DNA of 64,000 bases from an uncultured Bacilli bacterium (GTDB taxonomy: Bacteria > Bacillota_I > Bacilli_A > RF39 > UBA660), in the NCBI GenBank assembly GCA_947585665.1, contig CANPXE010000002.1:1820-65819 (forward strand), written 5' to 3'. The translations under genes and the position numbers were made by a program. Below are positions 15,142 to 55,014 of the stretch, piece by piece. The notes under the pieces were generated by a model. It worked only from the letters and a program-made list of their open reading frames with translations. It searched no databases and was not told the origin of the DNA. The stretch's first letter is position 1, and each line of letters begins with the position of its first letter.

Positions 15142-15507
15142 GTGATTAAAATGATTTCTAATGGTATAGATATAGTTGAAATAGAAAGATTTTCTAAACT
15201 CATTAATGATAATAATTTTCTAAATAAATATTTTACTTCTAATGAATTGGACTACATAAAAAAAAGAAATAATAATCTTAGTACAATTGCAGGAATTTAT
15301 GCTAGTAAAGAAGCTTTTTTAAAAGCTATTAAGAAAAGAATGAATATTTATCCTATTAATGATATTGAAATATTACACAATGAAGAAAATGCTCCTTATA
15401 TAGTTCTTCATAATCAAATAAAAAAAGATATAGAATACCAAAGTATTTCTATATCTATATCACACGATGGCCATTACGCCATTGCTGAAGTCATAATATT
15501 ATTTTAA
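15142..15507 (+). CDS. acpS: Holo-[acyl-carrier-protein] synthase (4'-phosphopantetheinyl transferase)
   Basis: 121 aa; GIDIVEIERF N-terminus, YASKEAFLKA and ISISHDGHYAIA motifs typical of AcpS. Confidence 0.85.
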   Translation: MIKMISNGIDIVEIERFSKLINDNNFLNKYFTSNELDYIKKRNNNLSTIAGIYASKEAFLKAIKKRMNIYPINDIEILHNEENAPYIVLHNQIKKDIEYQSISISISHDGHYAIAEVIILF

Positions 15508-16455
15508 ATTATTCTTGTAAATGCGATATGCTTCATTCCAAGACTGGTATTTTTCATCATTACGATGATCTTCTAATAAACCAGTCTTTTTTAAATACTC
15601 ACCAATGAATTTAGATACTTTTTTAGCACCCCAATAATTTAAATGTACTCCTCTATCTTTAGTTTCTTTAGTCCAGTCAATTTTTAAAGGATTATCTTTA
15701 TTTAAATCAATATATTCAAGGCCATATTTCTTAGCTAATTTACTAATAGCATTATATCTTTCATAAGTGAAATTATAATAGTTAGGATTAGTAATTAAAA
15801 CTAATTTAACATTCTTTTCTTCGCTCAAATCAACCATTTTTTGAAAAGCATCAAGATTCGCTTTAGGAATTCTCATTGCTTTTTTTGTCTCCTTTAATTC
15901 TTTTTGCTCAGTAACACCTTTAATCTTATGGATGTACTTATAACCTTTATAAACATTAAGTTCTGTAAAATCGTCACCTGTATTTAAAAATTTTAATGTC
16001 TTTTCTTTCCAATTATTGTGATAGGTTGAAAGAGGAAAAAACTTTTTAAATGTTTGGTCAAAGTAACGATCAATAGGAATGTTTTTTTCATCTCTAAATA
16101 AAACATCAGCCTCAAAAAACGCAACCTTCGGATGTTGACTCTCAATAGATTCATACAACATCTCATAAGATATAGGTGTAAGTTGTGACATACCAACACA
16201 ATCAAAAATAGTATAACCAAACTCATTCCATATTTCCATAGGTGAAATTGCTGAATAAACAACACTATCACCAATGAAAATAGCATCAATAGTATTTTCT
16301 TCTTCTTGTAATATTTCAAATTCTCCAGTCTTAATAATACCATACTTCTTAGTATTGTTACCAGGAATTAAAAGATAGGATAAACCATAGTAAATCAATG
16401 CAAAAATTAATGCAAACAATATACTTTTAACTACAATTATTAATTTATCTTTCAT
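15499..16455 (-). CDS. DltD-like membrane-anchored SGNH-fold acyltransferase
   Basis: N-terminal TM helix then a FIGDSVVYS block (GDS motif). It is the last gene of the dltA'-decarboxylase-dltC'-dltB' operon, separated from dltB' by 8 nt. Confidence 0.5.
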   Translation of the reverse strand: MKDKLIIVVKSILFALIFALIYYGLSYLLIPGNNTKKYGIIKTGEFEILQEEENTIDAIFIGDSVVYSAISPMEIWNEFGYTIFDCVGMSQLTPISYEMLYESIESQHPKVAFFEADVLFRDEKNIPIDRYFDQTFKKFFPLSTYHNNWKEKTLKFLNTGDDFTELNVYKGYKYIHKIKGVTEQKELKETKKAMRIPKANLDAFQKMVDLSEEKNVKLVLITNPNYYNFTYERYNAISKLAKKYGLEYIDLNKDNPLKIDWTKETKDRGVHLNYWGAKKVSKFIGEYLKKTGLLEDHRNDEKYQSWNEAYRIYKNNLK

Positions 16456-16463
16456 AATATCAC

Positions 16464-18047
16464 CTAGAAATCAGCATAAATTGGGTCAACTGGTTCATAT
16501 CCTGGTCCATATGCACCAAATATTAATATACCAAAAATCAAAGCATAATAAATGGCCCATCTTAAAACAATGTGTTTTTTACTTACATCTTCCCTAATAT
16601 TCTTATTGTGCTCTTTTAATACACTAACTACAAGAACGACAATTAAGGCTACAACAATAACAATAAAATCCTTAACATCCAAACCTAAATTAGGAATCTC
16701 ACTACCAATTGATGTAATATCGAAATGTAGGAATATTCTCTTAATCATTCGAAGAGCTGTAGTTAAATTTATAGCTCTAAAGAAGATTTCACCTAAAAAG
16801 ACAAGAAGTGATGTTTTGACAATTTGAAATCCTTTATAAATAGTACTCTTACGATTAATCTTTAACTTTTCACATACTTTTACGATTGTTGGCTCAAAAA
16901 TATTACCTAACAATATTAAAACAAAATGATAATATCCAAATGCTAAAAAGTTATAACCAGCACCATGCCATAAACCATTTAAAGACCATACTGCAAATAA
17001 AGCGATAGCACCCATTACTAAGGAAGACACACGATTATTGATATGCTTACGTAAAAAAGTAGTAAGTTTCTTTACTGGTTTAGAAAGAGAAACAGGATAA
17101 AAGATATAGTCTTTTAACCATGTACCTAAAGAAATGTGCCATCTTGACCAAAAGTCCGTAATATTTTTAGCAAAGAATGGCTGTCTAAAGTTCTCTGGTA
17201 TCTTTATATCAAATACTTCAGCGGAACCAATAACAACATCCATTGTTCCTGAAAACTCCATATAAAGCATAATTGTATAGGCTATAGCACCTAGAGCTAC
17301 AGAAGCACCAGACATATGCATATAACCTTTAAAAATAACTTTAACAACAGCATTAAGACGATCAGCTATTAAGAATTTCTTAAAGAATCCCCAAAGTATT
17401 CTTTGAAATCCAAAGCAAAAATTATGGTAAGTAACTTTACTACCATTATATATACTATCACTTACTTGACCATATCTCGTAATTGGTCCTTCCATTATAG
17501 TTGGAAAGAATGATAAGTACAAAAATACTTTAAAAATATTTTTGTCTGCCTCTATTTTTTCATTATAAACATCTATTACATAAGATAATGCTTGTAATGT
17601 ATAAAAAGATATTCCGATGGGAGCAGCATATTTTAAAATACTAAACCTATGATTAATATTAAAAATATTAAATATTTTATTAGATATCTTCTTAAAAAAG
17701 TTCAAATACTTAAAGAAAAATAGAAACGCAACATTAAATAGAATAGTAAATACTAAAACTATTTTCTTGCGACGTTTATATTTTTCCTTAACTGTTTTTC
17801 GCTCTTCTTTTGATGTTTTCTCTAATTTCTTATCACGTTTTTCATCTATTTTCTTCATAATTAAGCCAGCACCATATATTGAGATTGAAGATAACAATAA
17901 ATAGAAAACTAATTTACCACTGATGTAAAAGAAGAAAGCATAACTAGCAAGTAGTAATACAATTGGTTTTAGTTTCTTTGGTGTAAAATTATAAACAATA
18001 ACTACTGCTAGAAATAGAAGCAAATATTCGACTGAAAGATAAGACAT
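16464..18047 (-). CDS. MBOAT-family membrane O-acyltransferase (DltB/AlgI-like)
   Basis: 527 aa polytopic membrane protein with the MBOAT histidine motif FWSRWHISLGTWL (compare DltB FWRRWHMSL). Its start overlaps the carrier-protein stop. Confidence 0.75.
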   Translation of the reverse strand: MSYLSVEYLLLFLAVVIVYNFTPKKLKPIVLLLASYAFFFYISGKLVFYLLLSSISIYGAGLIMKKIDEKRDKKLEKTSKEERKTVKEKYKRRKKIVLVFTILFNVAFLFFFKYLNFFKKISNKIFNIFNINHRFSILKYAAPIGISFYTLQALSYVIDVYNEKIEADKNIFKVFLYLSFFPTIMEGPITRYGQVSDSIYNGSKVTYHNFCFGFQRILWGFFKKFLIADRLNAVVKVIFKGYMHMSGASVALGAIAYTIMLYMEFSGTMDVVIGSAEVFDIKIPENFRQPFFAKNITDFWSRWHISLGTWLKDYIFYPVSLSKPVKKLTTFLRKHINNRVSSLVMGAIALFAVWSLNGLWHGAGYNFLAFGYYHFVLILLGNIFEPTIVKVCEKLKINRKSTIYKGFQIVKTSLLVFLGEIFFRAINLTTALRMIKRIFLHFDITSIGSEIPNLGLDVKDFIVIVVALIVVLVVSVLKEHNKNIREDVSKKHIVLRWAIYYALIFGILIFGAYGPGYEPVDPIYADF

Positions 18048-18286
18048 TAAATATCCTCTTGTAATCTCTCAATTAGCTCCCAAATCTTTTTAGCTGAATT
18101 AAAGTTAGCTGGTATTATTTCAACTGTTGGAACTTGTACTCCAAATTCACTCTCAATTTCACTAATTAATGAAAGTATTGTCAATGAATCAAGATATCTT
18201 CCATCAACTAAGTCCTCACAAGTTTCATAATCAACTTCTGGTTGTAACTCCTCTAATATTTCGATTAATTTTTCCATCATTCTCAC
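18047..18286 (-). CDS. DltC-like carrier protein (phosphopantetheine attachment site)
   Basis: 79 aa acidic protein; GRYLDSLTILSLISEIESEFGV with the Ser in an LDS motif as in DltC/ACPs. Confidence 0.7.
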   Translation of the reverse strand: MRMMEKLIEILEELQPEVDYETCEDLVDGRYLDSLTILSLISEIESEFGVQVPTVEIIPANFNSAKKIWELIERLQEDI

Positions 18287-18294
18287 TCCTTATA

Positions 18295-19461
18295 TCATAT
18301 TAAATTATTAGGAAAATTTAATTCACTCGTCTTGATGTTATCTCTAACCAGTTTAGTACCCCCCCCGGTATGATTTAGAACGACTTTAGGAAGATCTCTA
18401 CTCAAGAAGAGAGATATTCCTTCAGTACTCGAATAAGCACCAACATTTTTAAAGATAAAAACATCTTCTTTTTGTAATAACTGTGTTGTAATATTCTTTA
18501 CGAGGAAATCATTTATGGTACATAGAGAACCACATAAATTATATGTATCCTCTTGGCCAACTCTTTTAGGTAATATTTCATAATGCGGTATTTTCATTGC
18601 CATCGTTTGTCCATAATAGACAAGATGATTTATACCACCATCTAAAATGACATAGTTACCATACTTATTAGTTTTCATATCAACAACTTTAGTTAGATAA
18701 CTACCACAAGAAGCAGCAATACTTCTTCCAATTTCTAATGATACTTTCTTTTTGGTTATTTTGTCAAGAATTCTTTTTATTTCAGCAAGAAAAGCATCTT
18801 CGTCAAACTCATCACCAACATAATAGAAAACTGGTAATCCTGGACCATACTCTATCTCTTTTATCTCTACTTTTAAGTCATTTTCAATATGAGAAACAAA
18901 TTCGATTAAATGGTCTATCTCTTTTTCTATTCTAACTAAAGAATGCTTTTGTGTTCCTGAAAAGTATTCTATTCCATCAATCGTCATCAAAGGATTCTGA
19001 TGATTCTTTATAAGTTCTTCAACTTCACTTTCCGTAACACCAAATTGATTACCACTGGTAAGACGAATCAAGATATTTATCTTACGATTATATTTTCTAG
19101 TAAGTTCATCTAATAATTCGTATTGACTAACTGATTCAATCGTATATTTCAATATATCATCATAGTTCTTAATCATGTTTTCAATTGTTGGTCTATCTTT
19201 ATATACACCTGATATGACCATCTTTTGATGATTAATTTTTAGTTTATTGCAAATATCAAATTCCCCAGGACTACATATTTCATAACGATCAACATTCTCC
19301 TCAAGACTTTTCGCAATAAAAGTATTGGCTTTGACAGCATAAACTAAATCATAACCAGCTAATTTACTACGCAAATAGGAAATTCTCTCTAAAAGAGTAT
19401 CAATATCATAGACATAAGTAGGAGTTCCATACTCTTTAATGATTTTTTCATAATCAACCAT
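18295..19461 (-). CDS. PLP-dependent decarboxylase, Orn/DAP/Arg decarboxylase (alanine-racemase-fold, type III) family
   Basis: 388 aa; PLP-lysine motif VYAVKAN, SPGEFD (GE motif), EIGRSIAA (EPGR-like) and the active-site Cys region LCGSLCTINDF (CESGD-like). Its start overlaps the dltA' stop. Confidence 0.75.
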   Translation of the reverse strand: MVDYEKIIKEYGTPTYVYDIDTLLERISYLRSKLAGYDLVYAVKANTFIAKSLEENVDRYEICSPGEFDICNKLKINHQKMVISGVYKDRPTIENMIKNYDDILKYTIESVSQYELLDELTRKYNRKINILIRLTSGNQFGVTESEVEELIKNHQNPLMTIDGIEYFSGTQKHSLVRIEKEIDHLIEFVSHIENDLKVEIKEIEYGPGLPVFYYVGDEFDEDAFLAEIKRILDKITKKKVSLEIGRSIAASCGSYLTKVVDMKTNKYGNYVILDGGINHLVYYGQTMAMKIPHYEILPKRVGQEDTYNLCGSLCTINDFLVKNITTQLLQKEDVFIFKNVGAYSSTEGISLFLSRDLPKVVLNHTGGGTKLVRDNIKTSELNFPNNLI

Positions 19462-20978
19462 TATTTTTCCTCCATCTCTTCTCTTAATTTTTTACGATCT
19501 ATTTTACCATTTTTAGTAATTGGGAAATTATCCAATTGAATTAATTTAGTTGGAATCATAAATACTGGTAAAACTTCTTTTAACTTAGCATGTAAATCTT
19601 TCTTAGGAATAGAACCAATATAGAAACCATATAGTTTAGACTTTTCTTCATCAAATAGACAACAACTTCGAACAACCTCAGGAATGTCCATAATCGCTTT
19701 TTCAATTTCTTCTAGTTCAATACGATGTCCTAAATATTTAATTTGGAAATCTTTACGACCATTGAAAACGACATCATCATCTTCATTGTAGTAACCCAAA
19801 TCCCCAGTGCGATAAATTAATTCTAGATAATCTTTATTATTAGGATTTTGAACAAAATGAGCATCGGTTTGTTCCTTGTTATTAAAGTATCCTAACCCTA
19901 AAGCTGTTCCTGAAACACATATTTCTCCAACTGTATTTCGATTAGTGACAACTTTATTTTCATCATCTAAAAGGAATACTCTTTCATTAGGGAATGGTTT
20001 ACCAGCTGGAATCTTATCTTCATATTTCTTCTTATTATCAATTATATAATAAAGACAATTACAAGTAATTTCCGTTGGCCCATAGACATTTATAAAAGTC
20101 GTATTAGGTAATTTTTCCATCCACATATTTAAATGTTTCAATGGCATTACTTCACCACTGAATAAAACCTTTTTAACAGTTGTTGGTACTTTGTAATCCA
20201 AACCATGGAAAGTCGTAATTAGACATAGTGCTGAAACAGCCCAAGTCAAAGTCGTAACTTTATTATCACAAATATAATCTAAAAGAATAGCGGGATTAGA
20301 AAAGTAACGTTTAGGAATGATGACAAGGGTTGCCCCAACACGCATAGCTGAAAAGATATCTTTAACTGAGACATCAAAGTCAAACGGTGCTTGGTTACCA
20401 ATGATATCATCTTCATTAAAATTGAATAATTCTGTAAAAACATCAATAAAATCAATTACTGAACGATGTGAAATGACGACACCCTTTGGTACGCCCGTTG
20501 ATCCTGATGTGAAATTGACATACAAAGGATCACAATCAACATGTCTTTCATAACAAGAAGCAAGAACTTTTTCATCAATTTTCTTTTTCTTTAAATCTTC
20601 TATTTTATTAATCTCTAAATCACTGAAATACTTACTAGCCATTTCATAATGTTCTGAATCAGTAATAACTATTTTAGCATTAAGAGTATCTCTAATTTGT
20701 ATAACTCTTGCTTCAGGTAATTCTGGATTTATTAGACTATAAAAACACCCTGCATAAATCGTTCCAAAAAACGAAATGAGAGTGTCTATTCCTTTATCCA
20801 TAAAAATAATTACTGGTTCATTAAAAATACGAGAACCAATATATGATCCAACTATTTTACTATATTTATTAAAGTCACCATAAGTTATCTTTTTATCTTC
20901 TTCAATAACTGCGATTTTTTCCTTATATAATTCGCTTGATTTTTTTAAATAATCGATTACATTATACATAATTCCCAC
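19461..20978 (-). CDS. DltA-like carrier-protein ligase (ANL adenylating enzyme)
   Basis: 505 aa; AMP-binding motif NFTSGSTGVPKGV, YRTGD and GRKDFQIK motifs; DltA size; first gene of the operon. Confidence 0.8.
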   Translation of the reverse strand: MGIMYNVIDYLKKSSELYKEKIAVIEEDKKITYGDFNKYSKIVGSYIGSRIFNEPVIIFMDKGIDTLISFFGTIYAGCFYSLINPELPEARVIQIRDTLNAKIVITDSEHYEMASKYFSDLEINKIEDLKKKKIDEKVLASCYERHVDCDPLYVNFTSGSTGVPKGVVISHRSVIDFIDVFTELFNFNEDDIIGNQAPFDFDVSVKDIFSAMRVGATLVIIPKRYFSNPAILLDYICDNKVTTLTWAVSALCLITTFHGLDYKVPTTVKKVLFSGEVMPLKHLNMWMEKLPNTTFINVYGPTEITCNCLYYIIDNKKKYEDKIPAGKPFPNERVFLLDDENKVVTNRNTVGEICVSGTALGLGYFNNKEQTDAHFVQNPNNKDYLELIYRTGDLGYYNEDDDVVFNGRKDFQIKYLGHRIELEEIEKAIMDIPEVVRSCCLFDEEKSKLYGFYIGSIPKKDLHAKLKEVLPVFMIPTKLIQLDNFPITKNGKIDRKKLREEMEEK

Positions 20979-21119
20979 CCATTACTAAATATTTACTAAA
21001 ATAAACTTCTACGTATAATTATAATACTTTTAAAAATGTTAGACAATATTTTAACAACATTTTTTAAACATTAAAAGAATTAAAAAAAGAGCATTAAATA
21101 TAACCATTAATACTCACAC

Positions 21120-22001
21120 TTAAAACTCTTCTCTAACAGCCAAAATTAATTTTTTTATTTTTTTAATATACTTATCATTATCAATATTCATTAAGTAAAA
21201 ATGACAATAAGCATTTAATAAACACCATTTAAAATTATTCCAATCAAAAGTACCAATTTCTAAATAACCTTTAATAAATATCTTTATATCATCTATATTA
21301 TCCATAAAATGTTGTGTTGGTCTTAAGACACAAGCCCAAGCAATATCTTGTTCTTTAAATCCTTTACCACTATATTCCCAGTCTAAAATACCTGATACTT
21401 CCCCATCTTTCCACAAAATATTAGCATAATGGAAATCACCATGAATAAATGTATCATTATCAAACTTTGGTTTATTTTCCTCCAAGTATTTAATGATTGA
21501 AGTAATGAAATCATCAATATCATCATAATTATCTTGAGAAGGAATATCATTAATAATTCTTTTTTTAGCTACATCGAAACCCTTAGTTGAAATAGTGTGA
21601 AGACGTGCAAGACTTGATCCATATTTTAATAAATAATCTTTTTTAGAAATATTTTTATTGGATTGTAAAAGATCAGATAACCTATCACCATCAAGACTTT
21701 CTAACACAATATAGCTTTTATTATCAATAACGCCTGTTTCATATATTTGAGGAATCAAAGAACAATAATTAAAACGATTAAGCATTCCTAAATGTTCTAC
21801 TTCTATATTAAAATTAGCCATTTTACTTCTTTCAATTTTAATAAAAGCCTTTATCAATTGATTATTATAAATGCAATGACATTCAACGACATCATTACCA
21901 GCAGGTGGATAACTAATTATTTCTTTTAACTCGATTTTCTTAAAATCAATAGAAAATGGATCAATAGCTAAATCTCGCCACTTTTCATATATTTTACTCA
22001 T
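21120..22001 (-). CDS. Aminoglycoside/choline-kinase-like phosphotransferase (APH family)
   Basis: 293 aa; Brenner/catalytic HGDFHYANILW and DWEYSG motifs. Confidence 0.65.
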   Translation of the reverse strand: MSKIYEKWRDLAIDPFSIDFKKIELKEIISYPPAGNDVVECHCIYNNQLIKAFIKIERSKMANFNIEVEHLGMLNRFNYCSLIPQIYETGVIDNKSYIVLESLDGDRLSDLLQSNKNISKKDYLLKYGSSLARLHTISTKGFDVAKKRIINDIPSQDNYDDIDDFITSIIKYLEENKPKFDNDTFIHGDFHYANILWKDGEVSGILDWEYSGKGFKEQDIAWACVLRPTQHFMDNIDDIKIFIKGYLEIGTFDWNNFKWCLLNAYCHFYLMNIDNDKYIKKIKKLILAVREEF

Positions 22002-22099
22002 ATTTCATCTCCTACTTAATTTTTATTAAAACAATTAATTCTCGTTTAGTCAATCTATATAAAGATTTCCCGTATGTAACTCTCATAAAAGCATTTCAA

Positions 22100-24092: not shown

Positions 24093-25379
24093 TTAATTAT
24101 CTGTTCTATTAGTCATTATGTAGTCAGCTCCATAACCAGCATGTTGTTTTCTTAAACCATCACTATCAAGTGAATATACACACACTTTAAAACCATTATT
24201 TTTAATATTTTTAACAGTGCTTGATGAAGATACAGTAAGAATCATATTAACACTAACAACACCAGCACTCTTAAAGGAACTCATATTGCTAACAAACTTA
24301 CTATAGCCAGAACTATTAGTAATCAAGTACCAATATTTAACACCTGATGCTCTTCTATTTATTTGGTTCATTGTTCCAATATCTGACGTTTGAACAATGA
24401 CTATATCTTTTAAATTATTATTACTAATATAATCACCTAATGTATTAAGCATTGATGAATAATTGTAACTCCATCCACTAGAAGCATATTTAATATCAAG
24501 AATGGCTTTCATTTTATACTTTTTACATATATTCAAATAATCAACAAATTTAGTAGCACTTCCAGGTCCCACATCATGAGCACAATATAGAGTTGAACCA
24601 TTCATACGTAAATCACATTCAGCACCATAGAACTTAGCTTGTCCTGCTGATTCATATAAAGCAATAGTATTATCTTTAAGAGGTGGTTGTCCTGAATGCA
24701 AAATACTTAATGCATTATAGAACTTATGATAGTAACTTAGATCATATTCAGTAGATGTTATCTCTTCTCTTATTTTATTTAATTCGTCCATTCTCTTTTT
24801 TCTTTCATCTTTATCAATGATTTTTCTTATATATTTTTCAGCTTCTATAACTGCTGGCATAGTCTTCTTTTCTTTAGCAATTGCTAAATATTTATCAGCA
24901 TCCTTAATCAATTGCTCTTCTATTTTTTCAATTTCATCTAACATAATTTGTTTTTCAGTTTCATCAGTTATCTTATCAATAGCTTGTTTAGCTTCATTTA
25001 TTGAAGCACCATCTTTATTTTTTTTAGCTACTTCTAAATATTCTTCAGCTATTTCTACTATTCTCATTTCAATATAATCGTTATTCGCATTAACTAAACA
25101 TTCTCCATATCCTATTTCAACATCTGAATTAGCTAAAAGTGAATTAAATAAACTAACTAATAAAGGTACAAAAAAGACACATACACAAGCAATCATTCTT
25201 TTAACTGCCATCGAAATATTTCTTTTCATATCTTTATCGTTAGTAGCAACAACTGTTTTAAGTATATCAACACCTAAAATAACTATTAGTATGATTGGAA
25301 CAACTATAAATATTATTTTTAAAACTTCAGATACAAACATTATTGTTCTTAATACATCGGGATTTTGACAAGCTTCCAT
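24093..25379 (-). CDS. Membrane-anchored glycerophosphodiester phosphodiesterase (GDPD) family protein with coiled-coil linker
   Basis: Two N-terminal TM helices, an E/K-rich coiled coil, and a C-terminal GDPD-like core (YGAECDLRMNGSTLYCAHD ... IMTNRTD). Confidence 0.5.
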   Translation of the reverse strand: MEACQNPDVLRTIMFVSEVLKIIFIVVPIILIVILGVDILKTVVATNDKDMKRNISMAVKRMIACVCVFFVPLLVSLFNSLLANSDVEIGYGECLVNANNDYIEMRIVEIAEEYLEVAKKNKDGASINEAKQAIDKITDETEKQIMLDEIEKIEEQLIKDADKYLAIAKEKKTMPAVIEAEKYIRKIIDKDERKKRMDELNKIREEITSTEYDLSYYHKFYNALSILHSGQPPLKDNTIALYESAGQAKFYGAECDLRMNGSTLYCAHDVGPGSATKFVDYLNICKKYKMKAILDIKYASSGWSYNYSSMLNTLGDYISNNNLKDIVIVQTSDIGTMNQINRRASGVKYWYLITNSSGYSKFVSNMSSFKSAGVVSVNMILTVSSSSTVKNIKNNGFKVCVYSLDSDGLRKQHAGYGADYIMTNRTDN

Positions 25380-35895: not shown

Positions 35896-37005
35896 TTAAC
35901 TATCAAAATCTATTTTACTCAAATAATTATCACTAAACTCTTTTATTTTTTTATCATCACATTTATACATGATACATTCCTTCTTTTGAAGATCATAATA
36001 AAATTCTTCAATTATATCACCTGCTTGATTTATACTACTATATGACAAATCTACTGGATGTGTATAACTATATCTTTTTATGATGCCATCTTCTTGTTCT
36101 TCTACAATATAAGTTTTAACATCTGGATAATATTCCTGTTTTATACTTTTATTATCATTATTAGTTTCCAAATAATAACAATTATCGTCATCATTATATT
36201 TAAAATTTTTCATAATATAATTAGGCACATTAACATCTTCTACATAATTGACATCTTCTTTTAGTTTATTATGTTTCTTGAAAAAAATATTATTATTAGA
36301 ATATTCTTTTGATAGTTTTAATTTTATAATTGATACTTCATCATCTAATTCAATTTTTAAATATAAATTAGATACTAAATACTTTAAATCCTTATATTCC
36401 ACGCTCGATTCTGAAAAGTCCAATACATCAAAACTTATTACCCCGTTACCATAGAATAAAACATTTTTATTGTCGCCTTTTTCATAGTACAATTCAAAGT
36501 TAACATCATCAGTTTGTAAATTTTGAACATTTCCAAGTTGAATGTAAAGTTTTTCATGTGATACAATCATTAATCCATTATTTATAACATAATTATTTTG
36601 ACTACCTTCAATTTCATATACAGTTATAGAATTATAATTATTTATAAAATAATATGATAAAAATAAAATTGTTAAAGAAATAATTATTAACAAACTAAAA
36701 ATTAAATATTTTTTAAATTTAATACTTTTTTTCATAATATTTGCCGTCATGCTATTAATAGTTTTTATGTTGCTTTTATTTTTTCTTTCACCAAGCATTA
36801 ATTCATAAATTGTTATTTCAAAAATATCACTTAATTTTAATAAAACTTCTATACTAGGATTATTTATTCCACGTTCCCACTTTGAAACTGTTTCTCTTTC
36901 AACAAACAAAAGTTTTGACAACTGCTCCTGTGTCAAGTTTTTTTCTCGCCTTAATTCAGATATAAAATGCCCAATTTTTTTATAATCTAATTGCAAAATA
37001 ATCAC
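35896..37005 (-). CDS. Membrane-anchored XRE-family transcriptional regulator (HTH-TM-extracellular sensor domain), unit A
   Basis: N-terminal HTH_XRE (KNLTQEQLSKLLFVERETVSKWERGINNPSIEVLLKLSDIF), a single TM (YLIFSLLIIISLTILFLSYYFI), and about 250 aa outside. Confidence 0.65.
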   Translation of the reverse strand: MIILQLDYKKIGHFISELRREKNLTQEQLSKLLFVERETVSKWERGINNPSIEVLLKLSDIFEITIYELMLGERKNKSNIKTINSMTANIMKKSIKFKKYLIFSLLIIISLTILFLSYYFINNYNSITVYEIEGSQNNYVINNGLMIVSHEKLYIQLGNVQNLQTDDVNFELYYEKGDNKNVLFYGNGVISFDVLDFSESSVEYKDLKYLVSNLYLKIELDDEVSIIKLKLSKEYSNNNIFFKKHNKLKEDVNYVEDVNVPNYIMKNFKYNDDDNCYYLETNNDNKSIKQEYYPDVKTYIVEEQEDGIIKRYSYTHPVDLSYSSINQAGDIIEEFYYDLQKKECIMYKCDDKKIKEFSDNYLSKIDFDS

Positions 37006-38152: not shown

Positions 38153-38611
38153 TCAACAACTTTTAGCTAGTATCAAATTAATATCATTCGAATCAATAAT
38201 ATTTTGTATGCGACAATATTCATTATCTATTAAACTAATATTTTCATTACACTTTTCAAACACTCCAGTAATTTCAAATAGTTCATTATCTTTTATACGA
38301 GATACTGAAAGTCCACATTCATATAAAACCACTTCTTTTTGAGGCAATAAATTGTAATTATCATCAAGTTCAATTGGCATTAAATGGTTTACTTTAAATT
38401 GATAAATTATAAAAGTATATTCATCAATATTTATAGTTTTAGATTTAATTATTGAATCTTTTATATTATCAATGCTGACTTTATTACTTTTTTTGTATAA
38501 ACGACTGATATAATTATCAAACTTTAAATCGTATTTAAAATACAAACTATATAATCTAATTGATTTCTTATATATCAATTCAAATTTATCACTTTTCATA
38601 ACTAGCTCCAA
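38153..38611 (-). CDS. Hypothetical cytoplasmic protein (152 aa), terminal gene of cassette unit B
   Basis: ORF with RBS. Its 5' end is duplicated as a fragment at 29431..29490. Confidence 0.4.
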   Translation of the reverse strand: MELVMKSDKFELIYKKSIRLYSLYFKYDLKFDNYISRLYKKSNKVSIDNIKDSIIKSKTINIDEYTFIIYQFKVNHLMPIELDDNYNLLPQKEVVLYECGLSVSRIKDNELFEITGVFEKCNENISLIDNEYCRIQNIIDSNDINLILAKSC

Positions 38612-38629
38612 ATACTCTTTTTATTTAAA

Positions 38630-39352
38630 CTATACATTTTCATTAATTTTTTGTATCAATTCTTCTTTTAATTTTATGTATTTATTTTGTTGCTTCTCAC
38701 ATATCATATCCTTATTATTACAATCACTATATATATAATCATATTTCATTATTTCTTTCATTGTAAGACTACCATTTTCGTATCCAAAAAGCAAATTAGA
38801 TTGTCTAGAAATATTAAAATGCCCATATTCTACACTAGAGAATACAAATGTATTCTTAACGCTAGGATTTGGAGCTTTTTTTACAAATACTACATACTTA
38901 TCACCTAGAGTAAGAGGAGTCATTCCTCCAGAATAATCTATATATTCATTAGATATTAAATTTACTAAATCATAGATTTTTATATCATTACCCTCATAAA
39001 TACTATGATTACTATCATTTTTGTATATTTTTAATACTTTTGCATTATTAATCAAACTATTTCCATATATTAAAGGTTTATTCTGAACTATTATTTTAAA
39101 TACATAATCTGACTTGTCAAACAAATCATCAATATTACTTATTAATGAATCATTAATAAAAAAACCTTTTAATCTAGAATAATGTCTATACATCGACTCA
39201 GTAGATGTAATAAAGTAATCAGTATTTGAAATATAATCATCGTAACTTATGTGATTAGTTACTTTTTTACCAATGAAAATCATAATAAAGAAAAAAAATA
39301 CAAAAATTAAACAAGAAAATCTTAATATTTTTAATATGTCAACTTTTTTCAT
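38630..39352 (-). CDS. Membrane-anchored extracytoplasmic protein (240 aa)
   Basis: N-terminal TM helix then a soluble domain; overlaps the ABC ATPase stop by 14 nt. Confidence 0.35.
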   Translation of the reverse strand: MKKVDILKILRFSCLIFVFFFFIMIFIGKKVTNHISYDDYISNTDYFITSTESMYRHYSRLKGFFINDSLISNIDDLFDKSDYVFKIIVQNKPLIYGNSLINNAKVLKIYKNDSNHSIYEGNDIKIYDLVNLISNEYIDYSGGMTPLTLGDKYVVFVKKAPNPSVKNTFVFSSVEYGHFNISRQSNLLFGYENGSLTMKEIMKYDYIYSDCNNKDMICEKQQNKYIKLKEELIQKINENV

Positions 39353-39992
39353 TTCGATTTAACACCTTACCATCAACAACATAAAAAATCTTATCACACA
39401 AATAATTTAAATCCTCTTTATTATGGCTTGCCAATAACACTATTTTTTTCTGTTTTTTAAGTTTCAAAATTATTTCATGTAACTTTTTTATTGATGTTTC
39501 ATCTAAACCATTTGTTGGTTCATCTAAAATAATAATTTGTTGATTTTCCATTATTGCTTGTATAATTCTTAACTTTTGTTTCATTCCAAGGGAATATTCT
39601 TTAAATTTTTTATCCTTTGCTTCTAATAAGTCAAACTCTTGTAATAAACTACAAATGTATTGCTCATTATCTTTATTGTTAATTTTATATAACATATCTA
39701 GATTTTGAAATCCTGTTAGATGAGGATAAAAATCAGGATTTTCGATAAGGATTCCAAAATTTCTTAAATCATATTCATCATTAATTATCGAAGTGTCATC
39801 TATTAAAACATCACCAGTTGTTGGATATATCAAACTTGATATTGCTCTAAAAAGCATTGTCTTACCTGATCCATTTCTTCCATAGAATCCATATATTTTC
39901 CCACTTGATAAACTTAAATTAACATTATCTAAAATTACTTTATTTTTAATAATTTTTGTGTAATTTTTAACTACTATTCTCATCTTTAACAC
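39339..39992 (-). CDS. ABC transporter ATP-binding protein
   Basis: Walker A GRNGSGKTMLFRAI, signature SLGMKQKLRI and Walker B IIILDEPTNGLDE. Confidence 0.8.
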   Translation of the reverse strand: MLKMRIVVKNYTKIIKNKVILDNVNLSLSSGKIYGFYGRNGSGKTMLFRAISSLIYPTTGDVLIDDTSIINDEYDLRNFGILIENPDFYPHLTGFQNLDMLYKINNKDNEQYICSLLQEFDLLEAKDKKFKEYSLGMKQKLRIIQAIMENQQIIILDEPTNGLDETSIKKLHEIILKLKKQKKIVLLASHNKEDLNYLCDKIFYVVDGKVLNRNEKS

Positions 39993-40638
39993 CTCCTAAA
40001 TCTATTTTTATGTATAAAGATTTTAATATAAAAATTAATATGATTATAATAAAAAAGTCCACATAATTAATATTATAATTTACATATAATGAAACAAAAG
40101 GAATATAAAAGCATTTGAATGAATTTAATAATACTAAAACAGTGCAAGTCACAATAATAATAGAATATATAAAATTGTCAATAACTAATGCTCCTATAAC
40201 AATTATCATAATCAATAAAAATGTTTCAATGATATACTTAAAGTAAAATATCAAAAAGATTGTTTTTGTTTCTATTGGAAGTTGAAAAATTATTGTAAAT
40301 AAAATAATTTGCACTAAAATTGTAAATGTCCCTAATATAATATGATTTTTAATATTATCCTTAATTATGCTAAAATAATACGTTTTACGATTTTTATATC
40401 TAGGATTCATCTTTATTAGCTTATAATACATATTTTTAGATATTAAAAATATATTTAATATTACAGGAATAAACCAAATAAAGTTATAAATGTTGTTCTT
40501 AGAAAAGTCAATTATAATTTTATAATATGATACATTCATCCAAGATCGCATTTCTAACAAAAATGGAATTTTCATATAACATGTAACTAATATTATTGTC
40601 AAATATATAAATTTTTTCCCATTACTCATTATTATCAT
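39967..40638 (-). CDS. Polytopic membrane protein (putative ABC-2-type permease subunit)
   Basis: 223 aa with about 6 predicted TM helices; sits in an operon with the ABC ATPase. Confidence 0.4.
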   Translation of the reverse strand: MIIMSNGKKFIYLTIILVTCYMKIPFLLEMRSWMNVSYYKIIIDFSKNNIYNFIWFIPVILNIFLISKNMYYKLIKMNPRYKNRKTYYFSIIKDNIKNHIILGTFTILVQIILFTIIFQLPIETKTIFLIFYFKYIIETFLLIMIIVIGALVIDNFIYSIIIVTCTVLVLLNSFKCFYIPFVSLYVNYNINYVDFFIIIILIFILKSLYIKIDLGGVKDENSS

Positions 40639-41305
40639 CTTTTTTCATCATAAGATCTTTTTTAGAATATAGCAAAAGCATTACATTTACCAAAATAATA
40701 TTTAAGATAGTAATGCAAGTAAATATGGTAATACTGTTCGAATAAGTATAATTAATAATATACATATTATTAAAGCTTATATTTAGATTGTTTAAGTAAA
40801 AAAAATTTATATGATCTAAAGGAAAATCTATGCAAATTACAATAAATAGAAAAAATATAATAGAAATAAATCTTTTATCAATAAATATGTCAATTATCAT
40901 AATTATTAATGAAATAGTCAAGCTAACAATTAAGTAGTTTACAATTATAATTAGTATATTTAATAAATATTTAAATGAAACAGGTGCATTTAAAATAACT
41001 ATTACTAAATTAAATACTAAAAAAAATACAGTATTTAAAATAAATTCATAAATTAATGTAGTAATAATTAACTTAATTCTATTTTTATATCTAGGATATT
41101 TAGTTGTAATAAAAATATATTTATATACTAAATAATTAAAAATCAATGAAACAACAATCAAGTAATATCTGAGAGGTGGATTGCTTAAATATCCTAAAAA
41201 ATTTTCAAAAAAATTATTTTTTAAATAATATGAAATAAAAATTGAAACAATACAATTTAATATAAATATTAAAGTTAATTGTTTATTTCTCACTATATAT
41301 TTCAT
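40622..41305 (-). CDS. Polytopic membrane protein (putative ABC-2-type permease subunit)
   Basis: 227 aa, multi-TM; overlaps neighbouring genes at both ends. Confidence 0.4.
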   Translation of the reverse strand: MKYIVRNKQLTLIFILNCIVSIFISYYLKNNFFENFLGYLSNPPLRYYLIVVSLIFNYLVYKYIFITTKYPRYKNRIKLIITTLIYEFILNTVFFLVFNLVIVILNAPVSFKYLLNILIIIVNYLIVSLTISLIIMIIDIFIDKRFISIIFFLFIVICIDFPLDHINFFYLNNLNISFNNMYIINYTYSNSITIFTCITILNIILVNVMLLLYSKKDLMMKKDDNNE

Positions 41306-42114
41306 AAATAATCCTTCTTCCTAATTTGAAGAAGTAATAAGACTATGCAAGATAAAAGTAGGGTTACATATAATAATATTGCATTATATATAGAAAAGGA
41401 TGAAAAAGGTTGTAATTGTCCAATAATAGAATATTTATCTAATTTAAAAATTGATAATATTAATTCATCACCAATCAAAGCTAAAAATGGGAATACATAT
41501 ATAATGATACGTTGTTTTATAAAAAAAGAAATAGCATAAGATAGTGAAGATAGAAGACTAATCAAAAAAGATGTATGAGCAGATATAGACACAATGAACC
41601 AAAAAGGACTAATTAGTCTTAAATTATCAATAAAATAATATTTGTTACTACTTAAGTAAAAACCAGGGCTTTGGAAATATGTTAAAGCATTGCCACTACC
41701 ATATATTTTAGCAAGAACATAATAGTTTAACATAAATCCACAAAAAACAATTACAAATGTGGTGATAAGAATTAAAAAAAATCTCACAAATATTAAAGTT
41801 TTCTTATTTAATCTTGAATAAAGGATATTAGTAATTTTTTTATTATTTTCAAGCCAATTTATATCCGAGAAAATCGTTGAACATAATATTGGTAAAGCTA
41901 TAATAATAACTAGATTAATATTTACATCTAAATTATATAGAATAAATAGATATTCCGCTTTATAACCAATTTCACAAAACAAGTGTAAATTATAATTATT
42001 ATGATAAATAACTAAAAATATATGAACTAGATTAATTAATAATATACCCATTATAGCAAAATATAATTCCTTTTTTCTATATAGATGTTTCAAACTATAT
42101 ATTAATTCCTTCAT
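41302..42114 (-). CDS. Polytopic membrane protein (putative permease subunit)
   Basis: 270 aa, multi-TM. Confidence 0.4.
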   Translation of the reverse strand: MKELIYSLKHLYRKKELYFAIMGILLINLVHIFLVIYHNNYNLHLFCEIGYKAEYLFILYNLDVNINLVIIIALPILCSTIFSDINWLENNKKITNILYSRLNKKTLIFVRFFLILITTFVIVFCGFMLNYYVLAKIYGSGNALTYFQSPGFYLSSNKYYFIDNLRLISPFWFIVSISAHTSFLISLLSSLSYAISFFIKQRIIIYVFPFLALIGDELILSIFKLDKYSIIGQLQPFSSFSIYNAILLYVTLLLSCIVLLLLQIRKKDYL

Positions 42115-42140
42115 ACGAATTCTCCTCTTCTTAATTCAAT

Positions 42141-42168
42141 GTAAACACCAACACTTGTTGGTGTTTAC
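42141..42168. terminator. Strong 12-13-bp hairpin between the secreted-protein gene and the permease genes
   Basis: gtaaacaccaac-actt-gttggtgtttac; lacks a clear T-run, so it may be an attenuator or stabiliser. Confidence 0.3.
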
Positions 42169-42179
42169 ATATTAAATGA

Positions 42180-42623
42180 TTAATTATAGTTAATGTATCC
42201 ATTAGATACACCTTTTTTTGTCAATTTCCATACATGATTTCTAGCTTTAGTTCTCATTTTAGTTCCTATAGAAAATGCTCTTTCATAATTTAAATATCCA
42301 GTATCATCATTTTCCAAGTTCATAATTGTTCCATTTGGTGAATAAACATATTCTTTTTCTTTAGAATCAGTATCTTTATAAACATATCCACCAGCATAGT
42401 ATGTAACTTCGTCAATATTTTGAGCATCAACTATAATTTCACCTTTATTTGTTTTCGTTGCTATAACACCATCACCACGATCAGCTGTTGTTGTAACCCA
42501 ACCTTGGCGTGCAGGTATATCAAAGTAAAACCAAAGCCAATCAGCTGCATGTACACTAACCATTGTTAGTATAGCTACTAATGAAATAGAAACAAAAACA
42601 ATCTTTTTCATATGCTTCTTCAT
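42180..42623 (-). CDS. Small secreted protein (signal peptide, 147 aa), unit B
   Basis: Signal peptide ending VHAADW; GGAGG RBS. Confidence 0.4.
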   Translation of the reverse strand: MKKHMKKIVFVSISLVAILTMVSVHAADWLWFYFDIPARQGWVTTTADRGDGVIATKTNKGEIIVDAQNIDEVTYYAGGYVYKDTDSKEKEYVYSPNGTIMNLENDDTGYLNYERAFSIGTKMRTKARNHVWKLTKKGVSNGYINYN

Positions 42624-43809: not shown

Positions 43810-44919
43810 TTAAGTAAGCATACTTAAATATTCATTTTTAAAATATTCTATCAAATCTTTATTACATTCACCAGTAATGCATTCATTACTATCCAACACA
43901 TAAACAAATTCTTTTATAATCTTTCCATTATCACTAGTTTCTGAGTAAGTTATATCTGGCTTAGAATATGTAAAACTACTTCTATACCCATCAAATACTT
44001 CCTCTACCATGTACACATTAGCATCTACAAAATAGGTATACTTAATTGTTTTATCTTCTCTTTTTTCTTCTAAATAATAAGAATTATCATTGCTGTTAAA
44101 ATCAAAATTATCTTTTATATATGTAGGAATGTTATCATATAAATCATTAATGTCATCTTGTTTCAAAGATGATTCATTTTGTGGAATTATTCTATTATTA
44201 GAATATGATTTAGATAGTTCCAATTTTAAAACTGACATTTCATTATCATTAAATATAATTTCTAAAAACATATTTGAAATTAAATATTTTAAATCACCAT
44301 ACTTAAATTCTGAATCTTTATAATCAGAAACATATGATCCTCCCAAGTCATTTCTCTCATAAAAAGTAATTGTTTTATTACCTTTTGTGTAATATAACTT
44401 TTCAGATATAATATTAACGCCATTATTATTTTCAATATTTCCCAAATTTATATAAACTTTTTCTCTAGATATAACCATTATTCCATTGTGAATAGAAAAA
44501 TTATTGTCATCATAATTAATATCATAAACCATAATTGAATTAAAATTATTTATGAAATAATATGATAAAAAAGATAAAAATAAAATTAAGATTATAATTA
44601 TAGTTATGGATAGATACTTTTTAAAAACTACATTTTTTCGTAGTGCACCAACTGTAACATCACTAATACTTTCAATATTCTCTTTATTTATTCGTTCGCC
44701 TAATATCATTTCATTAATAGTAATTCCAAATATTTTAGACATTTTTATTAATGTTTCAGTGTTTATACTATTTTCACCAAGTTCCCATTTTGATATAGTG
44801 GTTCTATCAACAAATAATTTTTTTGCTAGATCTTCTTGGGTCATATTTTTTTCTTTTCTTAGTTCTACTATAAATTTTCCTATTTTTTTATAGTCCATAT
44901 AATCCATTTTAAACATCAC
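43810..44919 (-). CDS. Membrane-anchored XRE-family transcriptional regulator (HTH-TM-extracellular domain), unit B
   Basis: HTH_XRE (KNMTQEDLAKKLFVDRTTISKWELGENSINTETLIKMSKIF), single TM, about 250-aa ectodomain; about 55% identical to 35896..37005. Confidence 0.65.
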   Translation of the reverse strand: MMFKMDYMDYKKIGKFIVELRKEKNMTQEDLAKKLFVDRTTISKWELGENSINTETLIKMSKIFGITINEMILGERINKENIESISDVTVGALRKNVVFKKYLSITIIIILILFLSFLSYYFINNFNSIMVYDINYDDNNFSIHNGIMVISREKVYINLGNIENNNGVNIISEKLYYTKGNKTITFYERNDLGGSYVSDYKDSEFKYGDLKYLISNMFLEIIFNDNEMSVLKLELSKSYSNNRIIPQNESSLKQDDINDLYDNIPTYIKDNFDFNSNDNSYYLEEKREDKTIKYTYFVDANVYMVEEVFDGYRSSFTYSKPDITYSETSDNGKIIKEFVYVLDSNECITGECNKDLIEYFKNEYLSMLT

Positions 44920-45698: not shown

Positions 45699-46127
45699 AT
45701 GGCTATATTAGACTATACTAATAATGAATTAGATCTAATGGCTAGACTAATGCGTGCGGAAGCTCTTGGTGAAGGGGATCTTGGTATGTTAATGGTAGGA
45801 AATGTCATCGTTAATCGAGCTTTAGCCAACTGTTTAACTTTTAAGGATATAAATACTATTCAACAAGTTGTTTATCAAAATCCCGGCGGATTTGCTGGCA
45901 TAAATAGTAGTCTTTTCAATCACGCTGCAACAACTCTTGAAAAAGAATTAGCTCTTCGTTGTCTAAATGGTCAATATTATTATCCAGCTACTAATGCTTT
46001 ATGGTTCTATTCTCCAACCAAAGGCTCTAACTGCATCTCTTTATGGTACAACCAACAATTAAGTGGTAAATATAAAAATCATTGTTTTTATAAACCATAT
46101 CCTGGTGTCTGTAAAGAATTATATTAA
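45699..46127 (+). CDS. Cell wall hydrolase, SleB/CwlJ (Hydrolase_2) family
   Basis: LMARLMRAEALGEG motif (compare LARLIYAEARGE) and a conserved NALWFYSP core. Confidence 0.6.
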   Translation: MAILDYTNNELDLMARLMRAEALGEGDLGMLMVGNVIVNRALANCLTFKDINTIQQVVYQNPGGFAGINSSLFNHAATTLEKELALRCLNGQYYYPATNALWFYSPTKGSNCISLWYNQQLSGKYKNHCFYKPYPGVCKELY

Positions 46128-46981
46128 ATAGGTATTAATAATCTTTGATTAACTGCTAATTTATTAGAAGTCAAATTATTAATATCTTTTATTTTATCTA
46201 TTGTCGTATTAAATTTTTTCGCAATACTATATAAACTATCTCCTCTTTTAACAATATAAAAATTCTCTTTTGTTTTAGGAACTTTTAATATTTGTCCAAC
46301 ATCTAAAGAATCTGTTCCTAAATTATTTATCTTTATCAATTCATCTACCGTCGTATTATATCTTTTAGCTAAATCATATAAATAGTCTCCCTTTTCGACT
46401 ACATGGATTCGACAATTAACAAAATCTTTATCACCAAAGAAATCAATTATAATATTTACTATATCATCACCATAACTCTTTATTTCTTCACTAGTATCAT
46501 TTAAATTATCATAGCCAAATTCTATTACTACTACTTCCATATTATCTTTAGCTAATCTTTGAATAGCATAATAATCTTTACTATCATCAGTTGGTAAAGT
46601 CTTTGTCTTAACTTCCGTTATAGCATTCAATTTATTATATAAATCCTTATTTATCGCATCATCACTATTTATAGAATAAATAATATCAATACCACTACTC
46701 TTTTCATTTTCAATATGAATTGATAAAACTAAACTCTTTCCCTCAACTTCACTTATAATATTATCTATATATTCATAACGATCATAATTACTCATCGTAT
46801 AATCATCATTTCTTGTTATATAAACTGGAAAACATAAATCTTTTAAACGATTATATATATACTTAGAAAGTTCTAAATTAAAATCTTTTTCATAATTGTT
46901 TCCTTCATAATAACCAATATCTATTCCACCATTTCCTGGATCTATTATAATTGACTGATAACCATTATTCATAAATATCAC
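46124..46981 (-). CDS. N-acetylmuramoyl-L-alanine amidase-like (Amidase_3) domain with two C-terminal LysM domains
   Basis: N-terminal IIDPGNGGIDIG (DPGHGG-like, His replaced by Asn); two LysM repeats (VEKGDYLYDLAKRYNTTVDELIKINNL and VKRGDSLYSIAKKFNTTIDKIKDINNL). Confidence 0.6.
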   Translation of the reverse strand: MIFMNNGYQSIIIDPGNGGIDIGYYEGNNYEKDFNLELSKYIYNRLKDLCFPVYITRNDDYTMSNYDRYEYIDNIISEVEGKSLVLSIHIENEKSSGIDIIYSINSDDAINKDLYNKLNAITEVKTKTLPTDDSKDYYAIQRLAKDNMEVVVIEFGYDNLNDTSEEIKSYGDDIVNIIIDFFGDKDFVNCRIHVVEKGDYLYDLAKRYNTTVDELIKINNLGTDSLDVGQILKVPKTKENFYIVKRGDSLYSIAKKFNTTIDKIKDINNLTSNKLAVNQRLLIPI

Positions 46982-54070: not shown

Positions 54071-55014
54071 CCTATTTCTATATTAGCAATATCTTTCCAA
54101 TTAGTTGGAAAGCCCATTCTATCCAATACCTTATCAATTGGTATTGTTTTTAAATTGTACTCTAAATTCTCTAAAGCACGACTTATTTCAATAACTAAGT
54201 TTTTAACTTCATTATCTGTAAGCATTTGTCTAATGATAATGATGAGCGCAAATAAATCATTTTTACCATAGATGTATTCATCATCAATCTTATCAATGTG
54301 CAATAACTGGTGATACATCGTATCATCAATTACTCTTTGCGTTTTGTTTTCAAACAAGATGTCCTCATGAGCACAAAGATTACGATAATTAGCTAAAATT
54401 GGTAAATAGTTCGCTAGTGTTTCTTGTTCTATTCCAAAGATACTCGCAATTGCCAAGCGATCTTCCAACTTCAAAATGGAATACATCTCACTAACAATTC
54501 CAAAAGATAAAACTTTTACCAAGACCCATAAAGGTATATAACCATAATTAGTTAAATAGTGCATTGTTGCCGAGTGTTGACTACCATTTACTCTTATCTG
54601 TCTCTTCATCTTTTTAAGTAAATCATTTATTTGCTTATACTTTTCAGGACTACTATCAAAGTTCTTAACTTTTAAATAATCATTTTCTTTATAACCATAT
54701 TTCTTAGACAATTGATAAGAAATAATTGACTTAATATTATTCTCAATAATAAGTAGGTTTTTAAAAATAATATTACGAAATTGACGATCGAATAAGAATA
54801 GACTATATAATTCTTCAAAAGTAGTACCTTCAATATATTTCTTATTATTAGCTGATTTCATAAAAAGATGACGATAACCATTTAAGAAAAAGTAGTTTTC
54901 ACGAAGAAGAACACTTTTCGCAAACTTTTCGTCTTCAATTACTAAGCCTTTATATTTAAATATTTCGATTTGCTCATCTAGGTTTTTAAACTGCTTATCC
55001 CTCATTATTCTCAC
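54067..55014 (-). CDS. Abi_2-family abortive infection protein (AbiD/AbiF-like)
   Basis: 315 aa; N-terminal LDEQIEIFKYKGLVIEDEKFAKSVLLRENYFFLNGYRH pattern typical of Abi_2 proteins; stop overlaps the htrA start (ATGA). Confidence 0.5.
   Translation of the reverse strand: MRIMRDKQFKNLDEQIEIFKYKGLVIEDEKFAKSVLLRENYFFLNGYRHLFMKSANNKKYIEGTTFEELYSLFLFDRQFRNIIFKNLLIIENNIKSIISYQLSKKYGYKENDYLKVKNFDSSPEKYKQINDLLKKMKRQIRVNGSQHSATMHYLTNYGYIPLWVLVKVLSFGIVSEMYSILKLEDRLAIASIFGIEQETLANYLPILANYRNLCAHEDILFENKTQRVIDDTMYHQLLHIDKIDDEYIYGKNDLFALIIIIRQMLTDNEVKNLVIEISRALENLEYNLKTIPIDKVLDRMGFPTNWKDIANIEIG

Follow-up and report, generated by a model that had tools for sequence, protein, structure and literature searches.

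A candidate carrier-dependent envelope acylation cassette with a BtrK-like decarboxylase in gut Firmicutes

Introduction

Is an operon that resembles the machinery for D-alanylation of teichoic acids, but carries a gene for an amino acid decarboxylase in its midst, still a D-alanylation (dlt) operon, or does it attach a different group to the cell envelope? This question is raised by a 64,000-nt stretch of DNA from an uncultured Bacilli bacterium (contig CANPXE010000002.1, positions 1,820–65,819 of the forward strand; hereafter the window, to whose positions the coordinates below refer). A tightly packed run of five genes on its minus strand (15499–20969) encodes, in this order, an adenylase, a pyridoxal 5'-phosphate (PLP) decarboxylase, a carrier protein, a membrane-bound O-acyltransferase (MBOAT), followed by an SGNH protein. 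D-alanylation protects Gram-positive bacteria from cationic antimicrobials and, to our knowledge, no envelope acylation other than that by the Dlt system is known to involve a carrier protein. An earlier note on this DNA had proposed a Dlt-type machine in which a decarboxylase like BtrK, the butirosin enzyme, acts on an acidic amino acid tethered to the carrier. In our analysis the catalytic residues, an adenylase pocket unlike that for D-Ala, the likeness to BtrK and the synteny all speak for that proposal, while its upstream kinase, its DltB-type MBOAT and its DltD protein had to be given up. We conclude that the five genes probably specify a carrier-dependent MBOAT-SGNH envelope acylation, the acyl group of which is made by thiotemplated decarboxylation.

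Results

The five genes are closely coupled. An open-reading-frame check recovered six genes on the minus strand, a kinase gene plus the five genes of the cassette, where the earlier note had placed them, and searches of Pfam and NCBIfam confirmed the domain assignments. The first cassette gene (19461–20969) encodes a stand-alone amino acid adenylase of the DltA or nonribosomal peptide synthetase A-domain type (502 aa; AMP-binding, 206 bits; TIGR01733, 313 bits). It is followed by genes for a BtrK/CtaF-like PLP decarboxylase of fold type III (18295–19461; 388 aa; Orn_Arg_deC_N and Orn_DAP_Arg_deC), a DltC-like aminoacyl carrier protein (18047–18280; 77 aa; PP-binding, 22.8 bits, cut-off 20.8), an MBOAT acyltransferase (16464–18047; 527 aa; Pfam MBOAT, 49.5 bits) and a membrane-anchored extracytoplasmic protein of SGNH fold that belongs to an orphan family (15499–16455; 318 aa; assigned from predicted structure and conserved residues). 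The adenylase stop overlaps the decarboxylase start and the carrier stop overlaps the MBOAT start, in both cases as TAATG, and 8 nt lie between the MBOAT stop and the start of the SGNH gene. These junctions are as first described, but the gap between the decarboxylase and carrier genes is 14 nt rather than 8, because GTG 18286, which sits within the AAGGAG ribosome-binding site, is discounted as a start and ATG 18280 is the likelier one. Similarly, ATG 20969 (after GGGTGGG) is a likelier start of the adenylase gene than GTG 20978. We found no intrinsic terminators, and a search for a riboswitch or T-box leader that could name the amino acid returned only sub-threshold chance matches. The gene for the holo-acyl carrier protein synthase AcpS (15142–15507, plus strand; Pfam/NCBIfam) is convergent to the operon and overlaps the 3' end of the SGNH gene by 9 nt, a position that is kept in the Bacilli clade. 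The 64-kb window contains no second adenylase, MBOAT or carrier, and thus, as had been noted, no canonical dlt operon.

More than 20 independent loci, at 32–98% protein identity, carry this same cassette, so that its gene set is not a matter of chance, and adenylase, decarboxylase, carrier, MBOAT and SGNH-like protein were present in every locus with enough sequence. The hosts are Bacilli metagenome-assembled genomes, Erysipelotrichaceae and Lachnospiraceae. They include rabbit-gut genomes labelled 'uncultured Bacilli' (the window shows 98% protein identity to Lapin-013 bin18), Candidatus Coprovivens, Massilimicrobiota timonensis (complete genome), Coprobacillus and, among the Lachnospiraceae, Bariatricus and Sporofaciens; another cassette-bearing relative, L026, stands at 35% identity. 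Measured on the decarboxylase, conservation in these three groups spans 98% to about 35% identity. The gene order is permuted among them, being MBOAT-SGNH-adenylase-decarboxylase-carrier in Massilimicrobiota and Coprobacillus, while in Sporofaciens the SGNH gene is placed between the decarboxylase and carrier genes. Despite this reordering the adenylase gene lies directly upstream of the decarboxylase gene in all cassette loci, showing that the decarboxylase is an integral part of the system, as the earlier note had assumed, and not a lineage-specific insertion. The decarboxylase has hundreds of close homologues in gut metagenomes, and an exhaustive search at E ≤ 1e-30 gave 265 matches, each representing a cluster at 50% identity.

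Two groups of loci call for separate mention. In the most distant one (L028:6177–10250; 32% identity) only the C-terminal half of the adenylase is present, a carrier is not visible, and the orphan SGNH protein has given way to a member of the DHHW/ALGX family. This locus is either degraded or a variant that uses another extracytoplasmic transferase. L012 and L014 are labelled 'uncultured Muribaculaceae' and have 28–31% GC and Bacilli-like genes; we doubt that their hosts are Muribaculaceae (Bacteroidota) at this GC content, and these sequences are probably mis-binned.

To compare the adenylase with DltA, the ten pocket positions were mapped against the GrsA-PheA and DltA sequences (PDB 1amu, 3e7w, 3dhv); position 331 was off by one residue in one small alignment, and the ungapped mapping of the larger alignment was used for positions 330 and 331. 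The specificity code of the window adenylase is DVKTLSVCNK (Asp199 at position 235, Lys203 at 239, Ser271 at 301, Lys489 at 517), whereas that of DltA is DLMT[ML]CTVAK; the two pockets differ at 5–6 of the 10 positions, including a Cys-to-Ser change at position 301. The pocket thus differs from that for D-Ala. The enzyme also falls under the cut-offs of the DltA equivalogs (279 bits against 560 for TIGR01734, and 297 against 476 for NF003417). Across the cassettes the code reads DVK[TI]xSxCNK, with positions 235, 236, 239, 301, 330, 331 and 517 invariant. Since this code is both conserved and unlike that of DltA, the cassette adenylases would share one substrate, and this would not be D-Ala. 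The Lys at position 239 (Lys239) is reminiscent of Arg239 in those microcystin A-domains by which iso-linked MeAsp and Glu are activated. It also matches the Lys at the same position in a Glu code, DAKDLGVVD (PMC7256872). Lys239 implies that the substrate of the adenylase still has a second carboxylate, which argues that loading precedes decarboxylation.

The catalytic residues of the decarboxylase are in place. The PLP-binding Lys44 lies in YAVKAN (codon 19330–19332) and Cys314 in LCTIND (codon 18520–18522), and both motifs, as well as SPGE, are present and family-conserved. Invariant in the family are Lys44, ExCSxGE, GNQFG, [FY]SGTQ, ExGR, DGG, GSLC[TS]xxD and GAY. Because Lys44, ExCSxGE, ExGR, GAY and the Cys of the catalytic region are all kept, the protein is not a decayed pseudo-enzyme. 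The earlier note had read YAVKAN, a GE motif and a CESGD-like Cys region from the sequence, and these hold except that CESGD itself is absent, its place being taken by LCTIND. This difference belongs to a wider pattern, in which the family shares its active-site segments with BtrK and departs from diaminopimelate (DAP) decarboxylases: [YF]-x-GTQ instead of HxGSQ, QFG instead of KFG, DGGxxH instead of DAxMNDLIRP (within DAxMNDLIRPxxY), and LCTxxD instead of CExGD. In the window protein the DAP-type motifs RPxxY, CESGD and HxGSQ are replaced by VYYGQ, CTIND and FSGTQ, respectively, and so the protein is without RPxxY and CESGD, by which the distal end of DAP is held. We therefore rejected an identity as the DAP decarboxylase LysA, for which the match to TIGR01048 (159 bits against a cut-off of 298) is also too low. 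With a profile built from 131 family members, BtrK reached 241 bits, whereas the range for DAP decarboxylases was 151–202 bits, and when the predicted model was compared with solved structures BtrK gave the best query-normalised TM-score, 0.85. BtrK is the closest solved relative once the family profile is used, a result that supports the precedent drawn from it in the earlier note.

One relative of the decarboxylase, P0384 (36% identity; L024:3418–4884), is a natural fusion of the decarboxylase with a C-terminal PP-binding domain. It lies in a different cluster, which lacks an MBOAT and contains genes of the PALP, NAD_synthase-like and flavin-reductase types; this is probably a non-canonical thiotemplated pathway for a natural product. 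Another protein, P0284 (1046 aa), seems to join a decarboxylase homologue through a low-complexity linker to a surface-protein region of 650 aa with Ig-like and transglutaminase-like domains; it probably reflects an error of gene calling or assembly and was left aside.

The carrier has its phosphopantetheine Ser in LDSL (codon 18185–18187), which aligns with LDSM of DltC. Its best solved relative is DltC (35 bits), and it stays under the cut-offs of the DltC equivalogs (35 against 68 and 18.5 against 52 bits). The solved relatives of the MBOAT are likewise DltB structures only, and its conserved His361 (in WHG) and His304 (in RWHxSL) align with DltB, although it reaches just 145 bits against the cut-off of 375 for the DltB equivalog TIGR04091. 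The protein is also some 90–100 residues longer than the solved DltB chains (527 aa against 425–440 aa) and has two extra hydrophobic helices at its C-terminus (residues 458–476 and 493–511), after which it ends in the hexapeptide PIYADF (16467–16484), with Tyr524 encoded at 16476–16478. All complete cassette MBOATs terminate in this way, with two additional hydrophobic segments and then [PFL][IMV]Y[AM][DNGQ]F; the ends PMYANF, PMYAGF, FIYAQF, FVYMQF and LIYAGF were seen among the relatives, the first residue being Pro or Leu in some clades.

An acyl-shuttle motif of the form FXYXXF is carried by DltX in the Dlt system, and the same motif is found on two additional C-terminal helices in other bacterial MBOATs (Anderson et al., PMC12148441). 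In one of these, PatA, the Tyr is auto-acylated, and PatB then takes the acyl group from it (PMC12148441). No DltX-like small open reading frame was found upstream of the cassette adenylase, and the fusion of the shuttle motif to the MBOAT's C-terminal end would explain its lack. Judged by these sequence features, the MBOAT is of the PatA/AlgI type with a fused shuttle and not of the DltB type, and the earlier description of it as DltB-like has to be corrected.

The same applies to the SGNH protein, which had been called DltD-like and turned out not to be a member of the DltD family. It has an N-terminal transmembrane helix and invariant G62-D63-S64, D267 and H271. Sequence and profile searches of the PDB returned nothing meaningful for it, and the SGNH fold was recognised from the predicted structure only.

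From sequence, predicted structure and synteny we infer a route, including its substrate, the order of steps on the carrier, the acceptor polymer and the physiological role. AcpS would convert the 77-aa carrier to its holo form. The adenylase would activate an acidic amino acid, most likely L-Asp or alternatively L-Glu, by its side-chain carboxylate, with Lys239 pairing with the alpha-carboxylate, and thioesterify it to the carrier. The PLP decarboxylase would then take off the free alpha-carboxylate of the tethered residue, leaving beta-alanyl-S-carrier (from Asp) or gamma-aminobutyryl-S-carrier (from Glu). With His361 as the catalyst, the MBOAT would move the aminoacyl group from the carrier across the membrane to its own Tyr524 in PIYADF, from where the SGNH protein (Ser64, His271) would accept it on Ser64 and ester-link it to a hydroxyl group on an envelope polymer, either teichoic acid or some other glycopolymer of the wall. 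The product would add positive charge to the envelope, as D-alanylation does. We lean to Asp and beta-alanine rather than Glu and gamma-aminobutyrate (GABA) on a chemical argument rather than a result, namely that a free gamma-aminobutyryl thioester tends to lactamise. In the butirosin pathway a further glutamyl unit is added to the carrier-bound GABA, which we take to be a protection from this lactamisation.

Several observations weigh against the proposed route. In a single-sequence search the DAP decarboxylases scored slightly over BtrK (86 against 72 bits), and the PLP-stacking His is replaced by Phe in the decarboxylase, where BtrK has Tyr. The adenylase retains Asp235, which is also compatible with activation at the alpha-carboxyl, and alpha-decarboxylation would be impossible for a residue tethered by its alpha-carboxyl. 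The sequence does not separate Asp from Glu as the substrate, and a DAP-to-Lys route is a further alternative. The first residue of the shuttle is Pro rather than Phe in the clade of the window. In the SGNH protein, three residues separate Asp from His (D-x-x-x-H) instead of the usual two (D-x-x-H), and the genomic context gives weak hints as to the acceptor polymer (a phosphoglycerol-transferase-like gene in the Lachnospiraceae locus L017, two-component systems, and cdaA/cdaR).

The single-sequence ranking, in placing the decarboxylase nearest to enzymes that use a free substrate, would suit an alternative in which the machine is the same and the decarboxylase acts on the free amino acid (Asp to beta-alanine, Glu to GABA, or meso-DAP to Lys) before it is loaded; linkage in one operon demands a shared pathway, not chemistry on the carrier. 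We regard this alternative as unlikely, because the invariant Lys239 implies that the substrate of the adenylase has an extra carboxylate, RPxxY and CESGD have given way to BtrK-type motifs, the family profile favours BtrK, and P0384, a relative, includes a carrier domain by fusion. In the Btr, Cta, Flv and Vin pathways, moreover, Asp, 3-methyl-Asp or Glu is decarboxylated only once it is tethered to a carrier by its side chain, and CtaF, a BtrK homologue in the ornithine/DAP/arginine decarboxylase family, is inactive on its free substrate (PMC11350588, PMC7183216 and PMC11284099 jointly).

Alternatively, the cassette might belong to a non-canonical thiotemplated pathway for a small molecule or lipid, with the MBOAT and SGNH protein acylating a lipid or a secreted metabolite. 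Modules of decarboxylase and carrier are typical of natural-product clusters, and the fusion relative P0384 occurs in such a cluster, though one without an MBOAT. We think this distinctly unlikely, since the characterised bacterial MBOAT-SGNH pairs with a Tyr shuttle acylate envelope polymers, the cassette holds no further tailoring or condensation genes, and its neighbours vary by genome, which fits a self-contained envelope module. An ordinary D-alanylation operon with a passenger lysA-like gene is so improbable as to be effectively ruled out: DltA, DltC and DltB are the best named NCBIfam matches of the adenylase, carrier and MBOAT, but every Dlt equivalog match is far under its cut-off, the pocket departs from that of DltA, DltX is missing and the shuttle fused to the MBOAT, the decarboxylase lies well below the lysA cut-off without the DAP-binding residues, and it co-varies with the adenylase through the changes in gene order.

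We therefore favour the carrier-dependent acylation of the envelope set out above. In a more specific and more tentative form, which we rate as quite possible, the cassette would be the first example of a second carrier-dependent MBOAT-SGNH pathway, one by which gut Firmicutes place a beta-alanyl or gamma-aminobutyryl ester on teichoic acid or another wall glycopolymer via a Tyr shuttle.

The APH-like kinase gene just upstream of the adenylase gene (21120–22001, minus strand; Pfam APH, 55.7 bits) had been suggested as a possible member of the pathway, a suggestion that we reject. It is separated from the adenylase gene by about 150 nt, and the gap contains a promoter-like site (TTGTCT-17-TATAAT; 21018–21046, minus strand) that is a match to the consensus and no more; the region has no excess of such sites, with 41 found and 52 expected. 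None of the related loci compared carries a kinase homologue. The nearly identical locus L007 aligns with the window at 95.5% and 86% nucleotide identity on the two flanks and is without the kinase segment of about 1 kb, so that window positions 21104–22098 represent a presence/absence polymorphism. Being missing from L007 and all the other loci, the kinase is not part of the system.

The neighbourhood of the cassette differs among the hosts. An OmpR-type response regulator and a histidine kinase adjoin it in three distant loci, at L012:3085–5341 (a pair read from the open-reading-frame layout only), L014:3145–5395 and L026:8640–10647, and such two-component neighbours are reminiscent of the peptide-sensing control of dlt operons. 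In Lachnospiraceae the cassette lies just downstream of the cyclic di-AMP cyclase region, with cdaA and cdaR recognised by domain scan in L017 and cdaR alone in L016; for L015 this placement is read from the open-reading-frame layout. Behind the cassette at L017:11006–13883 come genes for a nucleotidyltransferase and for a protein of the sulfatase family that resembles phosphoglycerol transferase/LtaS (180 bits, which is under the cut-off). Two distant lineages (L001–L003:15729–16841 and L022:9705–10730) have a PGA_cap (CapA-like) gene downstream of the cassette and a few genes away from it, which may be coincidental.

Within the window, an amidase_3-LysM protein (46124–46981) shows that the organism has peptidoglycan. 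Some 2 kb upstream from the kinase gene lies the gene for a membrane-anchored protein with a C-terminal glycerophosphodiester phosphodiesterase (GDPD) domain and no NCBIfam match (24093–25379), which could act on glycerol-phosphate polymers. Farther away, seven co-directional open reading frames, several of them abutting or overlapping, form a very AT-rich run (38153–42623; 19% GC at 40–42 kb) with one Pfam match only, an ABC ATPase at 39339–39992. This run is flanked by similar 369-aa helix-turn-helix proteins (35896–37005 and 43810–44919). Finally, a gene for an Abi-like (Abi_2) protein (54067–55014) adjoins a gene for an HtrA-type protease.

Discussion

Our analysis of the five-gene cassette suggests that a compact operon, widespread in gut anaerobes, unites thiotemplated decarboxylation, so far from antibiotic pathways, with a tyrosine acyl shuttle. 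Both halves are known machinery; their combination, and a non-Dlt MBOAT-SGNH pathway that depends on a carrier, appear to be new. A literature search found no description of the cassette, although its coverage was incomplete and an earlier mention elsewhere is possible. If the group transferred is indeed a beta-alanyl or GABA ester, the cassette would make a new surface-charge modification parallel to D-alanylation, with probable effects on resistance to host cationic peptides, on autolysin control and on immune recognition in abundant, poorly studied commensals.

Among known systems, the exosortase-A-associated pair TIGR03098/TIGR03099, which occurs in an exopolysaccharide setting, resembles the cassette in combining an AMP-forming ligase with an enzyme like DAP decarboxylase. 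The two families match the window proteins at 181 and 134 bits, far under their cut-offs of 592 and 478. Unlike the cassette, these loci are proteobacterial PEP-CTERM loci, and the pair is uncharacterised; we found no paper on it in the literature searched.

The VinN/VinL/VinO proteins of vicenistatin and the FlvN/FlvL/FlvO proteins of fluvirucin biosynthesis, which we compared by description, are alike in that an adenylation enzyme loads 3-methyl-Asp or Asp on a stand-alone acyl carrier protein via the beta-carboxyl and a PLP decarboxylase then works on the bound residue. They differ in being actinomycete pathways for polyketide starter units, with steps of aminoacyl protection and transfer and no MBOAT or SGNH protein.

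In the BtrI/BtrJ/BtrK system of butirosin and the CtaD/CtaE/CtaF system of closthioamide, an Orn/DAP-family decarboxylase converts carrier-tethered Glu or Asp to GABA-S-carrier or beta-alanyl-S-carrier. The BtrK-type active-site motifs are common to both sides, and the cassette decarboxylase, like enzymes of this kind, is encoded beside a carrier and an ATP-dependent loader. However, the loader in those systems is an ATP-grasp enzyme, the product goes to an antibiotic, and there is no MBOAT route to the envelope.

The MBOAT-SGNH systems of the PatA/PatB type, as well as AlgI and WssH, share with the cassette an MBOAT with a catalytic His and a C-terminal hexapeptide on two extra helices, together with a membrane-anchored SGNH partner. 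They use acetyl-CoA as the donor and no carrier (PMC12148441), in contrast to the adenylase, carrier and decarboxylase that are found in all complete cassettes. Non-Dlt MBOAT-SGNH pathways were stated in 2025 to lack a carrier protein (PMC12148441), a generalisation that the cassette contradicts.

The Dlt system itself (DltX, DltA, DltB, DltC and DltD) is similar in its overall plan. A stand-alone adenylase loads a small carrier made holo by AcpS, the aminoacyl group passes from this carrier to an MBOAT, and the last transfer falls to an SGNH protein anchored in the membrane; DltC and DltB are also the nearest solved structures to the carrier and MBOAT of the cassette. Unlike Dlt, the cassette has a PLP decarboxylase following the adenylase, a pocket that is not for D-Ala, no DltX, and an SGNH protein that lies outside the DltD family.

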